DNA of 60,136 nt, the filler included, from Circinaria calcarea (lineage: Eukaryota), in the NCBI GenBank assembly GCA_051942165.1. It is 5 parts of 5 records of this genome, joined end to end, with 100 filler letters (N's around TTAATTAATTAA, not from the genome) between each part and the next. Parts side by side here need not be neighbours in the genome. Positions count along the whole stretch, not along the records: positions 24,131 to 36,082 come from JAVECS010000624.1; 4 more parts are not named here. The stretch is one strand, 5' to 3'. The notes beneath the pieces are model-generated. The model was not told where the DNA came from and did no database searches. It was given only the letters and a program-made list of their open reading frames with translations. Both the position numbers and the translations under genes were made by a program. Below, piece by piece: positions 1,257 to 48,225 of the stretch; within the stretch, counting starts at the first letter, position 1, and each line of letters begins with the position of its first letter.

Positions 1257-3099
1257 TCAAGTATGGTCGCCAACAACCACCTTGAACTGGTCCTCCGTCA
1301 CCCCCTTCCCCATGGCACTGGTACTCGAAACTCCTCCCGTCACCATCTTCAACAAATTATCCACGTAATTCGCTCCAGACCATTTCTGATGCGTGACGAC
1401 GTCAATCTTGTTGTTCATCTCGGGTTCCTGGATGAGTTCACCGTAGGCGCGCATTCCCTGTTTGGCGTAGGCTTTGGAGAACTGGTCTGAGATGAGGGCC
1501 GTAGTATGCAAACCCGCGAGAGTGATGAATTGCCAGCAGTAACCGAGTTTCCCAAGGCGCGTGATGTAGGTTTCTTGCTCTTCCCGGGACATAGCGGCCT
1601 TCCAGTTGAATGAGGGTGAAAGATTGTAAGCCAGTCTAAGTAAATATGTCAGTACTGCATCTGAGGATGTGAACATAATACATACTTTTGCTCCGGCCAT
1701 ACGGAGTGCACACCGTTGGCAAATTCCTCTGCCTGTTTGTAATCGGGCAACTTGCTTTCCATCCATATCATGTCAGTATACGGTGCGAACGCAATAGCTC
1801 GATTAATGGCACAGCCGCAGCCGCCCTGGTAACGGTAAAACCCTTCTCTCGTCCTCGGTGAGTCCCAATCCCAATGTATGTCTACACCTGTGAGACCCTT
1901 GGATATTGCCCGTAATTCGGAATTACTCTTTCCACGGCTCAAAGATCGGTATTCTTGAATTAGACCCTGTTTGTTGACATGAACTCCTGCGTTAATAGTG
2001 TCAATAACTGCTTGATCATATAACTTGAGCCCCGCTTGTGCGTTCCATTGGTCTTCGATTGCCTGTAGCTGGTCACCAGATTTGCCAACCTGCTCGGCGG
2101 CTATCATCAAATCACTCAAGGGCTGCAAAGCTGCATTGGTGGCTCCGAGAATGAACCCGTGATCCCGAGGATCGATTGTAGAAGTAATCAAAGTGGCAGC
2201 TTCCGAGTCTGTTCTAGCAACAGCCAGTAAGTCCGAGCCTAATATGTATTAGCATACCTGATGTAATAAACCGTGGCTTAATTACCCATGATGTCTGCTT
2301 GAGCCCGGATGGCGACCAATCGATTGATATGCTCGCTAATTGGAACCAGAACTTTTCCCGCCATGTGCCCGCACTTCTTCGTACCCGGTGCTTGATCTTC
2401 AATATGGATACCAGCAGCGCCTTTCTCAATGAAGAGCTTTGTCAGCTTCATAACAGCGGTCAGCCCGCCATGACCTGTGTCGGCATCCGCGATGATGGGT
2501 CTGAGAAAGTCGGTGTTGGCGATACCGCCACGCTTTGCCTTGGGGGTAGTAATACGTTCTTCTCGCTGTTTACGGTCATGAAAGAGCTGAGCCATAAAGA
2601 GATGCTGGACTTTGTTAGGTACAGTATTCTATGTTCATCAGTCTATCAATCTCAATCACTCCAATATTGCAGAGCAATCAATACCATTGGGTAATCTGCA
2701 AGATCCGGAGATGGCTCATCCGTCGATGAAGCGGTAGAAGAGCATTGCCAACCGGAAACATACACCGTATCAAGATATTTGGCCATTTGCGTGAGCATTG
2801 TTGGATCCAGACAGCCGTACGTAAAGCTGACATCTCCGTTCTGTACGGAGTTTAGTCAGGCACTGTTCGCTCGTCTGGAAGCGTTCTTCTCTTACCTGAT
2901 ATCTCCCTTCCAAAATCTGCCAGAGCTTCTTACTTTGGACATTGCTTGGATATTCCACCTTCAGGTTCCCCCTCTTGGCCACTATCTGCTCTGCCGTAAA
3001 AGGTCTCTTGGTGTATCTCCACCGGGAGTCGGTCCACCACCGCTTCACAGCCTCGACATCATCCTGATATTTCTGGTCTTCTTCGTCCAGAAGAGACAT
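1257..3099 (-). CDS. ICL1: Isocitrate lyase (glyoxylate cycle), 5 exons: ~3099-2896, 2840-2685, 2628-2286, 2238-1686, 1635-1257
   Basis: Spliced ORFs give [43 protein letters not shown], the catalytic motif KKCGHM (ICL; methylisocitrate lyase has KKCGHL), [19 protein letters not shown] and HQKWSGA. All four introns are GT-AG. The C-terminal tail after EDQFK is uncertain (a further intron is possible). Confidence 0.96.
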
Positions 3100-9544: not shown

Positions 9545-11969
9545 ATGCCTCCATTTTCGTACGCGAAAGTCCAACCCTGGGCTTATCAATCCATTCAAAC
9601 AATGCCTTTGATGTACACAAATATCCCTGTTCAGCCTGATTTCTTACCGCCCTCCGAGGACAACACCACCAAGCCAGCTGATAATGTTGGCACTGAAACA
9701 AAGGAGGCAGATGCTACCGAGGGAGGCTCTACGACCGAAACTGGTAGGTTAATATGTGTTGAACCTCCATGAGCGGGATTGCTCAAGGTCAAATTAATAG
9801 TACCACCTGCCGTACCTGCCGGCGATACGAGTGCCGAACCTGCCGCCGATAAGAGTATTGACGAAGCCCCAGGTGACACTATCACTACTGTTGACGACTC
9901 ACCGCCTCCAGTAGAGGCCGCTACAGATCCTAGCCCACCAAAAGAGGAAACCTCTGAAGCCAGTAACCCCATTAAGGAGCCGGTCGAACATCCTGGCGCC
10001 CACACTGAGCAGAAGCAAGCAGAATTTCCGCCAATTGACCCTGCTGCAGGGAGTGAGCTCAATGCGGCAGAGAAAGAAGCCGATGCTGCCAATGAAGATG
10101 TATGTTTAATGATCCTACCCATTGTCTTGACCATGCACATTTGTTAAGAAAGTTAGCGACCGTCACCTACGGATACCGTGCCTATAGTTACAGCGGACGA
10201 GACCCCTGTAGAGTCTGTGGAGGCGGTGAACAAACAGGTCACGTTTGCAGATGGTATTGCACCAGATGGATCTTCTGCCCCCGTCCTAAAAGAGACCAAA
10301 TCGACTTCGGCTTCATCATCTAAGAAAGGTAGCTCCTCCAAGGAAAAGGAAAAACAAAAGGCGAACAAAACCAATAAGACACAACCCATAAAAGAGAAGA
10401 AGGTTCAAGCAAAAGAGAAAATCCAACCTTTTAAGGAAAAGACTCAAGCAACGAAAGAAAAAGCCAAGTCAGTCAAGGGTAAACTAGGAAAGAAGAAACA
10501 GGATAAGCCTAAGAAAGGGAATTCTGTCGCTACCCCACCTCCTGCACCGGATCCACCAGAGCAAACAGAAGTCACTGAGCCACCGGACCAGGGAGCCTCT
10601 CCCGGAACTCCGCCAAGTTCAGAGCCGGCTAGCGAAGAGCTGCCTGATCAAGATCCGCCCAGTCCTGAAGCAACAAGTGAAGGAGCACCCAATCCTGAAG
10701 CAGCCAGTCCTGAAGCAGCCAGTCCTGAAGCAGCCAGCCCTGAAGCAGCCAGCCCTGAAGCAGCCAGCCCTGAAGCAGCCAGTCCTGAAGCAGCAAACCC
10801 TGAGGCAACAAGTACTGAAGCAACAAGTCCAGAGACAGCAAGTCCTGAAGCAGCCAATACTGAAGCAGCAAGTCCAGAGACGGCAAGTCCTGAAGCAGCA
10901 AATCCTGAGGCAACAAGTACTGAAGCAACAAGTCCAGAGACAGCAGGTCCTGAAGCAGCAAGTCCTGAAGCAGCAAGTCCAGAAGCAGCAAACCCTGAGG
11001 CAACAAGTACTGAAGCAGCAAGTCCTGAAGCAGCCAATACTGAAGCAGCAAGTCCAGAGACGGCAAGTCCTGAAGCAGCCAATACTGAAGCAGCAAGTCC
11101 AGAGACGGCAAGTCCTGAAACAGCAAGTCCAGAAGCAGCAAATCCTGAGGCAACAAGTACTGAAGCAACAAGTCCTGAAGCAGCAAGTCCAGAGACAGCA
11201 AGTCCTGAAGCAGCAAGTCCAGAAGCAGCAAATCCTGAGGCAACAAGTCCTGAAGCAGCAAGTCCAGAGGTAGCAAGTCCTGAAGCAGCCAATACTGAAG
11301 CAGCAAGTCCAAAGACAGCAAGTCCTGAAGCAGCCAATACTGAAGCAGCAAGTCCAAAGACAGCAAGTCCTGAAGCGGCAAGTCCAGAGGTGGCAAGTCC
11401 TGAAGCAGCCAATACTGAAGCAGCCAGTACTGAAGCAGCAAGTCCAAAGGCAGCAAGTCCAGAGGCAGCAGGCCAAGAGGCAGCAGGTCAAGATTCACCT
11501 GCTCAAGATTCACCTGCTCAAGATTCACCTACTCAAAATTCACTTACTCAAGGTTCACCTACTCAAGATTCACCTACTCAAGAACAATCTGATCAAAAAT
11601 TTCCAAATCAGGATACACCCAGTGAAGAATCGCGCGGTCCAGAAACACCTTCCCAAGAACCACCCGCTCCAGAACCAACCGCTCCAGAACCACCCGCTCC
11701 AGAACCACCTACTCAGGAACTACCAAGTCAAGAATCACTTAATCAAGACACAACTAATCAAGAACCAACAAGTACTCAAGAAGAGCTAGCCCGGCAAGAA
11801 GCAACTAGTCAACAGCCAACAAATCAAAGTCCACCGAGTGACAATTCACCGAGTAACAATTCACCGAGTGAAAATTCACCGAGCCCAGATCCACAGAGCC
11901 AAGATCTACAGAACCAGCAAACATCTGCTCAAGCATCGCCTAGCCAGGAGCCACCTAGCGAGCAATCGC
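9545..11969 (+). CDS. Low-complexity Glu/Ala/Ser/Pro-rich repeat protein, multi-exon, 3'-truncated by the contig end
   Basis: Consecutive acidic/Pro-rich ORFs linked by GT-AG introns (~9744-9800, ~10100-10150) lead into a ~600-codon ORF that stays open until the N-gap. It has a Lys-rich segment followed by pentapeptide repeats. The start codon is uncertain. Confidence 0.7.
10661..11580 (+). repeat. Coding minisatellite: 15-bp units (AGTCCTGAAGCAGCA-like, EAASP and variants) followed by CAAGATTCACCTGCT/ACT (QDSPA/T) units
   Basis: Directly visible tandem 15-nt periodicity over roughly 55 EAASP-type units plus about 6 QDSP units. Confidence 0.95.
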
Positions 11970-12069
11970 NNNNNNNNNNNNNNNNNNNNNNNNNNNNNNN
12001 NNNNNNNNNNNNNTTAATTAATTAANNNNNNNNNNNNNNNNNNNNNNNNNNNNNNNNNNNNNNNNNNNN
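11970..12069. other. Artificial contig linker (N44-TTAATTAATTAA-N44)
   Basis: 100-nt spacer whose core has stop codons in all six frames. Confidence 0.99.
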
Positions 12070-24030: not shown

Positions 24031-24130
24031 NNNNNNNNNNNNNNNNNNNNNNNNNNNNNNNNNNNNNNNNNNNNTTAATTAATTAANNNNNNNNNNNNNN
24101 NNNNNNNNNNNNNNNNNNNNNNNNNNNNNN
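24031..24130. other. Artificial contig linker
   Basis: N44-TTAATTAATTAA-N44. Confidence 0.99.
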
Positions 24131-25055: not shown

Positions 25056-25769
25056 TTGGAAAGAGGATATGGATAGTGTTGGTTTGAGGAGGATTAGATG
25101 GTGAGCCCTGCGCCGAAGAGCCTTGCGCCGGACAGCTTCTGCGCCGGAGAATGCTGCTGTGAAGAAATCGAGTTTTGCGATGAGAGGTGGATGATGGCGA
25201 GAGATGCGATTTGTAACGTTGCGCGACGCGTTTCAGGAGGAAGAGAGAGGAGGAGAGTAGGTAGTCAGCCTGATGCGCTCCCTCAATATGCGTCGTAGCT
25301 CTAGGTTGGAGTCCACAGGTTTGCGCCGGAGGATAGGAAGGTCTGAATAGCGAGTCTTTGGCGTTCACAGTAGCACTGACTGATTGTTCGTCCCGTCAAG
25401 GGGTCGTTGAGCTGCTGACGAGGTGATTCAACAATGTTGTGGGCAACCAAAGAGTGAATTCGTTCCTGAGGGAGCTGGTCGCATTTGGGCCTCTGGAACG
25501 GAAAGAGGGAAAACAACGGGAGGCTGCATTCAGGTCCCAGGAACGTGGCACTTAGCGCTTGCGGGATATCTACGACGCCTTAGCGTCAAACCGAGTCATC
25601 TGACGGTCAAAAGGGTCCACACCCCCATTGAGCCGGGATGCACTGAATTACGGACAAAAAGAGTTCCCCTCCCCCACGGGAAAACTACAAACCTCCACCC
25701 CTGTAAAATTCCGTAAAAGACTCCAGGCACCATACTTCTTAAAAAAGGGGTGAGAATCAATCGCAAAAC

Positions 25770-25790
25770 AATAAAATCAAAAATCAAAAA
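25770..25790 (-). terminator. RNA polymerase III terminator (oligo-T runs) of the tRNA gene
   Basis: TTTTTGATTTTTGATTTT on the minus strand a few nt after the discriminator base. Confidence 0.7.
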
Positions 25791-25796
25791 TAACAA

Positions 25797-25935
25797 TGAT
25801 CTAACCAGGGGTCGAACCCTATCGAGGCTCGTTAATAAATGCGTGCAACATTTCCCAGATATTTATCATTTGGAGTCTCGCTTACTGGAATCTCTTGATT
25901 CGTAGTCAAGCGCCTTGCCATTGGGCCATTAGACC
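25797..25935 (-). tRNA. trnR-ACG: tRNA-Arg (anticodon ACG), interrupted in the T-stem by a 67-nt insert (25819-25885)
   Basis: Joined exons give GGTCTAATGGCCCAATGGCAAGGCGCTTGACTACGAATCAAGAGATTCCA|GGTTCGACCCCTGGTTAGATCA (72 nt): acceptor stem GGTCTAA/TTAGATC, anticodon arm CTTGA-CTACGAA-TCAAG and T arm CCAGG-TTCGACC-CCTGG. A and B boxes are intact and T-runs lie just downstream. Confidence 0.93.
25819..25885 (-). other. Putative spliceosomal (GT-AG) intron inside the tRNA gene
   Basis: 5' GTAAGC, branch-like TATTAAC with its branch A ~13 nt from the 3' end, and 3' TAG. Removal at GT..AG exactly restores the T-stem. Confidence 0.8.
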
Positions 25936-27009
25936 AATGAATGAGCTGAATTTTTCCAATAAACAATATATAAATCACTTAAACTTTTTAATCCTGCCGA
26001 CAGAAGCAATCCTTTTAGCTTGCATTCACTACTAACAAGATGAACTTTTTCCACGAACCTCTTCGCCTATTCAAAACTCCGAAGACGCTTCACTCGGAAT
26101 ACTACGAGCAACACGCCCCCTTTTGCACGCCTATCTAGTATACGCAACAATTTACCAGTCACTACAATGCCAACTGTAGCGCTTCAAACGATGGGGGAAT
26201 CTATAGCACTCATTCGATCAAGAGGACCAAATGTAAAACCCTCCTTCTTAAGCTAAAATCCCCCCGAGACACTCATCCGACATCCACTACGGGGCTCTTG
26301 CCCTCCAGTCTCTAGGATACTTCCACAACAGCCACCCCCCTCCCCCCCACATGAATTGAAACTCCATCGGTAGGGAACGGGAAACTCCCCCCGATGTCGA
26401 CCACCAACAACTCCCTCGGTTTCAAAGGCGAGTACACAGGCAATGTTTCCTCACCTAGTAGTAGTAGTAGCAGCAACCCAGAAGGACCTAGGGTATATTC
26501 GTGAAACCCTGATCGTTCTAGATATGGGCGTCAACAGGGAACTATAGCCCCTCCCCGACCAGCTCCGTCTCAGAGCAGGCTGTTAGCCTATCAAACAGCG
26601 AAGTTTTTGGTGCAGTTTCGATATTTGCATGTTCGTTGGGACGGATGCCCACTGTTAAAGATAATTCCATCTTCCCCTTGAAAATCAAAAAGACTTATAC
26701 CATTCTTGAACGGCGAGGATTAGAAAACAAGAAGACTAAGCCCTATAGAAACAACAATGACTAAACCTAGTACGGCCTTTCAGCAACGAGAGCCCAGCAA
26801 GGCACAAGGGTCATTCCAAGGACCGATGGTGATTGGTCACAATTCATAAATTCGTATATTAATCGTGTTGGTGCTCAGCATCTACCAATCTCCATGCGCA
26901 CCGTATCGATGAAGTTATACGATCCAACCAAGTCCAACCAGACTTACTCGAGCATTCTACGATAGTGAAACGAAAAGAATCCTCCTGCCCTAAAAATCCA
27001 AAAAGTCCT

Positions 27010-36082: not shown

Positions 36083-36182
36083 NNNNNNNNNNNNNNNNNN
36101 NNNNNNNNNNNNNNNNNNNNNNNNNNTTAATTAATTAANNNNNNNNNNNNNNNNNNNNNNNNNNNNNNNNNNNNNNNNNNNN
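36083..36182. other. Artificial contig linker
   Basis: N44-TTAATTAATTAA-N44. Confidence 0.99.
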
Positions 36183-48125: not shown

Positions 48126-48225
48126 NNNNNNNNNNNNNNNNNNNNNNNNNNNNNNNNNNNNNNNNNNNNTTAATTAATTAANNNNNNNNNNNNNNNNNNN
48201 NNNNNNNNNNNNNNNNNNNNNNNNN
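48126..48225. other. Artificial contig linker
   Basis: N44-TTAATTAATTAA-N44. Confidence 0.99.

Follow-up and report, generated by a model that had tools for sequence, protein, structure and literature searches.

Can a nuclear tRNA gene be interrupted by an intron of the kind that the spliceosome removes from mRNAs, and still be a working gene? The introns of eukaryotic nuclear tRNAs are taught as a single class that sits at 37/38 and is excised by a protein endonuclease and a ligase. The question is raised by a tRNA-Arg(ACG) gene of Circinaria calcarea (assembly GCA_051942165.1), whose T stem is split by 67 nucleotides reading like a short fungal intron. The gene lies in a stretch of 60,136 nucleotides, analysed here as a whole and called the window hereafter.

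The tRNA-Arg(ACG) gene occupies positions 25797-25935 on the minus strand, as do all its parts. Exon 1 (25886..25935, 50 nt, tRNA positions 1-51) carries the 5′ acceptor strand, the D arm, the anticodon arm, the variable loop and the first three bases of the T stem, with the anticodon ACG assigned by ARAGORN at 25901..25903. Exon 2 (25797..25818, 22 nt, tRNA positions 52-73) carries the remainder of the T stem, the T loop, the 3′ acceptor strand and the discriminator A. Both exons were delimited by the Rfam alignment and by ARAGORN, which draws the cloverleaf once the insert is removed. The insert itself, 67 nt long (25819..25885), separates tRNA positions 51 and 52. Numbering is standard, with position 17 absent from this gene. 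The junction can be slid by one G, but GT..AG ends are obtained only with the 51/52 reading. The insert is thus not at 37/38, the canonical position of SEN-dependent tRNA introns.

The Rfam model RF00005 matches 25797-25935 on the minus strand over model positions 1-71, with 36.1 bits against a gathering score of 29, and aligns the 67 nt as one long insertion. This tRNA is the sole RNA family above the Rfam threshold in the 60-kb window. After removal of the 67 nt by script, ARAGORN returns a tRNA-Arg(acg) of 72 nt, whose acceptor stem has 7 bp and whose T stem, CCAGG/CCTGG, has 5 bp. In this rebuilt molecule, 20 of the 21 base pairs are standard, the exception, C13.A22, being common to all five genes compared below. 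The earlier note on this DNA had described a tRNA-Arg(ACG) split at 51/52 by 67 nt, with a T stem that excision rebuilds, and both programs bear this out. It had also expected standard tRNA finders to miss the gene. This holds for ARAGORN, which makes no tRNA call on the intact window and, when its intron option is used, miscalls the split gene as tRNA-Asn(att), but not for the Rfam covariance model, which finds it above threshold. Finally, 2,652 GTNNG..AG candidates from the window and five metagenome loci were removed one by one; in the window, no hidden single-intron tRNA gene other than the tRNA-Arg(ACG) gene appeared.

Judged by its sequence, the insert is a spliceosomal-type intron. All the signals of a U2-type GT-AG intron can be read on the minus strand: a GURAGU-like 5′ splice site, GTAAGC (25880..25885), a branch-site-like TATTAAC (25831..25837) with its branch A at 25832, 13 nt before the insert end, and a YAG-type 3′ splice site, TAG (25819..25821), within a length like that of host introns. 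The fungal branch-site consensus is of the YURAY type. The earlier note had reported the same signals, and their combination is rare in the window and goes far beyond what chance would give. Indeed, among all window 67-mers on both strands (n = 118,810), two, the insert included, start with GTAAG, carry a branch-like motif 6-35 nt from their end and terminate in YAG. Relaxing the start to GTRNG raises the count to five, the insert again included.

The likeness to mRNA introns of the same DNA, also proposed beforehand, can be followed in size and style. Introns were predicted as GT..AG segments that join neighbouring ORFs in frame without a stop, and they are predictions, not transcript-verified; for the isocitrate lyase gene, the predicted intron 1685-1636 agrees with the Pfam profile coordinates. 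The short, well-signalled candidates measure 48-92 nt, start with GTAAGT, GTATGT, GTAAGC, GTACGT and similar hexamers, and have CTAAC, CTGAC or TTAAT 10-18 nt before YAG. The hexamer of the insert, GTAAGC, recurs in an ORF-bridging candidate at 35189-35142 (minus strand). With its 67 nt, the insert therefore resembles the local predicted mRNA introns. A further argument of the earlier note was that the insert has no T-run longer than three and that RNA polymerase III (Pol III) could read through it. The observation is correct (the longest run is 3 in the window insert and at most 3 in all eight tRNA inserts considered below). The argument has no power, because the mRNA intron candidates of the window are equally short in T-runs, with longest runs of 2-4 in the 11 short candidates.

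The window, nuclear DNA of a filamentous ascomycete, has ORFs that match HET, fungal rhodopsin, an intron-split isocitrate lyase, PTPA and other families (Pfam). Two further features of the window may be recorded. At 10488-11786 (plus strand), in a stretch whose AT skew is 0.43, the matches of long low-complexity ORFs are weak, Extensin-like and HC2-like, and do not reach the Pfam cut-off; this is probably the gene of a repetitive Lys/Pro-rich protein. Eight 44-nt runs of N, in four pairs about 12 kb apart (11970-12069, 24031-24130, 36083-36182 and 48126-48225), look like masking, not biology.

Is this gene alone? The earlier note had suggested looking for other tRNA halves parted by GT..AG inserts, and the search gave six loci in metagenome contigs and none further in the window. 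The contigs were scanned for a piece of the anticodon arm followed, after 55-85 nt, by a B box, a pattern which fixes tRNA positions 29-41 and 52-62, leaves the acceptor stem and pair 49:65 free, and covers T-side inserts of about 45-75 nt. It matched 101 loci. Most numerous are uninterrupted tRNA-Arg(acg) genes (86 of the 101 according to ARAGORN), mostly in tandem tRNA arrays of prokaryote or phage type. In six loci, a tRNA-Arg(ACG) of the same type as the window gene is split by GT..AG inserts. L067 has a single insert at 50/51, and L064 has two, at 24/25 and 50/51. L046 (2474-2649, plus strand) and its near-duplicate L086 carry inserts at 52/53 and 62/63, which leave a 10-nt middle exon consisting essentially of the T loop and B box. 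L075 is interrupted at 19/20 and 46/47. The sixth locus, L021, lies on the minus strand at about 2425-2600 of the oriented sequence; it is split at 19/20 and 45/46 and is decayed: read by eye, 5 of 7 acceptor pairs and 3 of 5 T-stem pairs remain, and one donor is a poor GTTCGT. It looks like a pseudogene of the interrupted type.

Removal of the inserts restores a 72-nt tRNA-Arg(acg) in L046, L086, L064, L067 and L075, as in the window gene (ARAGORN). Left in their interrupted state, the two-insert genes are missed by the Rfam model, which detects the single-insert L067 (33.2 bits). No split relative found in the metagenome scan has its insert at exactly 51/52. The same strand of the T stem is nevertheless hit at 50/51 (L064, L067) and 52/53 (L046), besides 51/52 in the window gene; the strand that holds the window insert is therefore a repeated target. 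Positions one step apart are thus seen in the T stem (50/51, 51/52, 52/53) and also in the variable loop (45/46, 46/47), which suggests insertion hot spots or one-base intron sliding. Synteny between the window and the metagenome loci was not apparent: there were no tblastx hits, and blastn matches were confined to the tRNA locus. Of 29 ORFs flanking the genes of five loci, only two had Pfam matches, to DUF3632 and ACT-type domains. We take these contigs to be fungal from the style of the tRNA and of its introns alone.

The nine remaining loci are anticodon-arm look-alikes beside other tRNAs, plus L016 and L035. On L016 (plus strand, around 2470-2640), a GC-rich contig of bacterial appearance, a gene resembling tRNA-Arg(ACG) is interrupted by roughly 70 nt behind its anticodon arm and is followed by a hairpin terminator. 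It was rejected as a split gene, its insert being not intron-like: seven alternative deletions all give a tRNA call, with long-arm calls. L035 was also rejected, the "tRNA-Arg" called after an arbitrary GT..AG deletion being a chimera with the neighbouring tRNA. In L012, L015, L038, L019, L020 and L084, on prokaryote-type contigs, copies of the tRNA-Arg anticodon arm lie just upstream of an intact tRNA-Arg(ACG) gene and may be attachment-site scars of integrating elements. Lastly, about 20 nt downstream of the tRNA gene of L067, a T-arm-like piece (CCAGG, loop, CCTGG; 2611-2640, plus strand) may be the remnant of another tRNA.

Do these interrupted genes behave as genes? The window gene was compared with L046, L064, L067 and L075, a set with four distinct mature sequences, 21 base pairs and 30 unpaired positions. 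Eight of the 21 pairs vary, and all eight change on both sides and stay paired, with variation at one unpaired position out of 30. No pair is broken apart from C13.A22, found in all five genes. Six of the eight compensatory pairs are in the acceptor stem or at 49:65, outside the positions fixed by the scan pattern, and the two strands of each of these six lie in different exons. The comparison of L064 with L067 adds a second line of evidence. Their exon bases are identical (72/72), and their 50/51 inserts are no more alike than shuffled sequence (z 0.4); the exons are therefore under selection with the insert in place. Together with the compensatory changes, this pair argues that interrupted genes persist under selection, and the data fit a real tRNA gene family whose spliceosomal-type introns have persisted in this way.

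The transcription signals of the window gene, stated to be intact by the earlier note, are so. On the minus strand, the A box (TGGCCCAATGG, 25918..25928) is uninterrupted, and the B box (GGTTCGACCCC, 25808..25818), wholly in exon 2, begins at its first base, 99 nt from the A box. Upstream, a TATA-like TATATAT is found at -37..-31 (25966..25972); downstream, two T5 runs at +7..+11 and +14..+18 (25779..25790) resemble a Pol III terminator. Inside the gene, no T-run reaches four. This layout is general: in all five genes (window, L046, L064, L067, L075), the A box and the B box are each unbroken, T4 runs are lacking internally, and at least four T in a row occur 2-8 nt downstream. None of the eight inserts of these genes breaks an A or B box in the DNA, and four of them (19/20, 51/52, 52/53 and 62/63) abut the edge of a box; at 52/53, the B box is made complete in the DNA by the last G of the insert. 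These few cases suggest that inserts abut promoter boxes without breaking them. The A-to-B box spacing of 99 nt in the window gene is slightly larger than the 31-93 bp quoted for yeast tRNA genes (PMC11724288).

From these data we favour, with moderate confidence, the reading that this nuclear tRNA-Arg(ACG) gene of a filamentous ascomycete is in working order and that its T stem is split at 51/52 by a genuine U2-type GT-AG spliceosomal intron. Such a tRNA probably needs the mRNA splicing machinery to mature. For the window gene, we infer the splicing, the polymerase and the order of steps as follows. Pol III would read the gene from its intact A and B boxes and stop at the T5 run. The spliceosome would recognise GUAAGC, the UAUUAAC branch site and UAG, so that the 67 nt would leave as a lariat and the exons would be joined. 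The T arm and the acceptor/T minihelix would form only after exon joining; hence RNase P and RNase Z cleavage, CCA addition and A34-to-I editing would have to come after splicing. The window gene would then be one of a wider set of fungal-type tRNA-Arg(ACG) genes with such introns at several positions. A Pol III tRNA matured by the spliceosome was what the earlier note had proposed. The spliceosomal type of the insert, the Pol III signals and the split relatives all speak for that proposal; the splicing of the window copy itself is what we infer.

Several points go against a working gene. Before splicing, the transcript is predicted to fold better without a cloverleaf (-37.3 kcal/mol) than with the cloverleaf enforced (-23.4 kcal/mol). 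Alu RNAs made by Pol III are stated not to be spliced by the spliceosome in human cells (bioRxiv 10.64898/2026.09.26.754642). The 99-nt box spacing, the lack of a 51/52 insert among the split relatives of the metagenome loci and the decayed L021 are to be counted on the same side.

Most of these points would equally suit a dead or dying copy. On that view, reverse splicing, an introner-like event or repair would recently have placed an intron-type sequence in one of several gene copies; the transcript of that copy would not be productively spliced, and other copies would do the work. The predicted misfolding, the absence of a 51/52 insert in the relatives and the existence of a decayed interrupted gene are consistent with this. 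Moreover, tRNA-Arg(ACG) is usually a multi-copy gene, so that an inactivated copy would be tolerable. Against such decay stand the exons, both promoter boxes, the terminator and the three splice signals of the window gene, all intact. Perfect exons are not decisive, because a recent insertion would also leave them perfect. The sister genes also speak against decay, with like inserts and eight compensatory stem changes out of eight, and with identical exons in L064 and L067 around inserts without detectable similarity. We regard a dead copy as unlikely, though still to be reckoned with.

A route through RNA polymerase II (Pol II) would preserve both the gene and the spliceosome. The tRNA would sit inside a longer Pol II transcript, be spliced co-transcriptionally and then be released by RNase P and RNase Z. 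In favour of this route, it is generally known that splicing is as a rule coupled to transcription by Pol II and that longer transcripts can yield tRNAs by cleavage. In the window, a possible minus-strand ORF in the same orientation has its first ATG about 740 nt downstream of the tRNA gene. However, for a 5′ UTR in a fungus 740 nt would be long, a Met is missing from two of the three minus-strand ORFs that follow immediately downstream, and the neighbouring ORFs have no Pfam match. The contiguous boxes and the T-runs shortly past the 3′ end in five genes out of five correspond to an autonomous Pol III layout, and we find a Pol II origin distinctly improbable.

Could the insert be a DNA-level mobile element, such as a MITE, a SINE or an introner-like repeat, that resembles an intron by accident? 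Transposon-derived introns and introner-like elements do exist in fungi. A dispersed repeat with a target-site duplication, which the earlier note had named as a possible refutation, was not seen in the window or the metagenome loci. There is no second copy of the insert in the 60-kb window, where the best other matches are of 10-11 nt, or in the 101 metagenome loci. Terminal inverted repeats are absent from the insert, and at the junctions nothing is duplicated except the one G that can be assigned to either side. Compared two by two, the eight tRNA inserts give 28 pairs, none of them significantly similar (all z below 3), and the window insert folds no more stably than shuffled sequence (z -1.0; as good a fold is reached by 37 of 200 shuffles). 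From the window and these loci, such an accident seems very improbable. Least credible of all is removal by a non-spliceosomal machinery, either the tRNA-splicing endonuclease at a non-canonical site or self-splicing: D- and T-arm tRNA introns are known in nucleomorphs and Cyanidioschyzon (PMC4090602), but a bulge-helix-bulge (a 4-bp helix at the junctions, flanked on either side by a 3-nt bulge), also looked for at the suggestion of the earlier note, is rejected here since the best arrangement forms only 2 of 4 central base pairs, a group I or group II intron is likewise rejected since 67 nt are too short and Rfam at E up to 1 over 25700-26040 gives the tRNA only, and the GT, branch and YAG signals would be left as an unexplained coincidence.

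A spliceosomal intron in a working Pol III gene has a known counterpart. In Schizosaccharomyces pombe, the spliceosome excises an intron from the transcript of the single U6 gene, which is made by Pol III (PMC5855946), and mRNA-type introns occur in the U6 genes of S. pombe and of other fungi (Tani and Ohshima, 1989, 1991; Canzler et al., 2016; via PMC5855946). Like the U6 introns described there, the tRNA inserts are short, of GT-AG type and equipped with canonical splice sites at both ends and a canonical branch site, and their host is a small, structured gene of Pol III type. They are also unrelated in sequence between species, vary in position and are sometimes several per gene. In contrast with U6, the tRNA host is not a part of the spliceosome, and the "reverse splicing at the active site" of that account cannot be transferred to it directly. 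A tRNA intron of this kind also breaks the T arm needed by tRNA end-processing enzymes, which is a second difference. Spliceosomal introns are further reported in U1, U2 and U5 snRNA genes and in ascomycete rDNA (Takahashi, 1993, 1996; Bhattacharya, 2000; via PMC5855946). These are again non-coding RNA genes of fungi, but their hosts are transcribed by Pol II or Pol I.

Among tRNA introns, those of archaea, nucleomorphs and Cyanidioschyzon merolae are comparable in position, since they also lie outside 37/38, T arm included, and may be several per gene (PMC4090602). As described in the same review, they depend on a bulge-helix-bulge and the tRNA-splicing endonuclease, and many measure 3-24 nt, whereas the window insert has no such motif and shows full spliceosomal signals. 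Canonical eukaryotic nuclear tRNA introns, at 37/38, are processed by the SEN endonuclease plus ligase (PMC10275265). The window gene shares with them, as that review presents them, the interruption of a nuclear tRNA gene and the need of removal for function. It differs from that description by its 51/52 position, its GT, branch and AG signals, and a likely lariat instead of the endonuclease plus ligase chemistry.

No description of a spliceosomal intron in a tRNA gene was found in the full-text literature, subscription journals and supplements being outside the scope of the search, which agrees with the earlier note, whose author knew of none. A term search of two tRNA reviews (PMC10275265, PMC4090602) found none either, and the list of host genes given in PMC5855946 names U6, U2, U5, U1 and rDNA, without a tRNA. 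The insert would belong to a known kind, spliceosomal introns in small non-coding RNA genes, and the novelty would be the tRNA as a host. Extending this to the relatives, we tentatively suggest, as a possibility that falls a little short of even, that spliceosomal introns have colonised Pol III tRNA genes at many positions in some ascomycete lineages. The 5′ strand of the tRNA-Arg(ACG) T stem would be a recurrent target (50/51, 51/52, 52/53), and the promoter boxes would be hugged but never broken.

If a spliceosome-dependent tRNA does exist, it would link two RNA-processing systems thought to be separate and would mean that Pol III transcripts besides U6 can be spliceosome substrates. If the colonisation of tRNA genes is true, uncapped Pol III transcripts would be routine substrates of the spliceosome. 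Splicing would become the obligatory first step of tRNA maturation, an unusual order of events, since a precursor that lacks a T arm is not recognised by RNase P or RNase Z, and such introns would form a third, undescribed class of nuclear tRNA intron. In practice, the tRNA genes of such fungi may be undercounted, as ARAGORN misses the window gene and the Rfam model misses its two-intron relatives. Finally, these genes would offer a natural system for studying the gain of new spliceosomal introns in non-coding genes.
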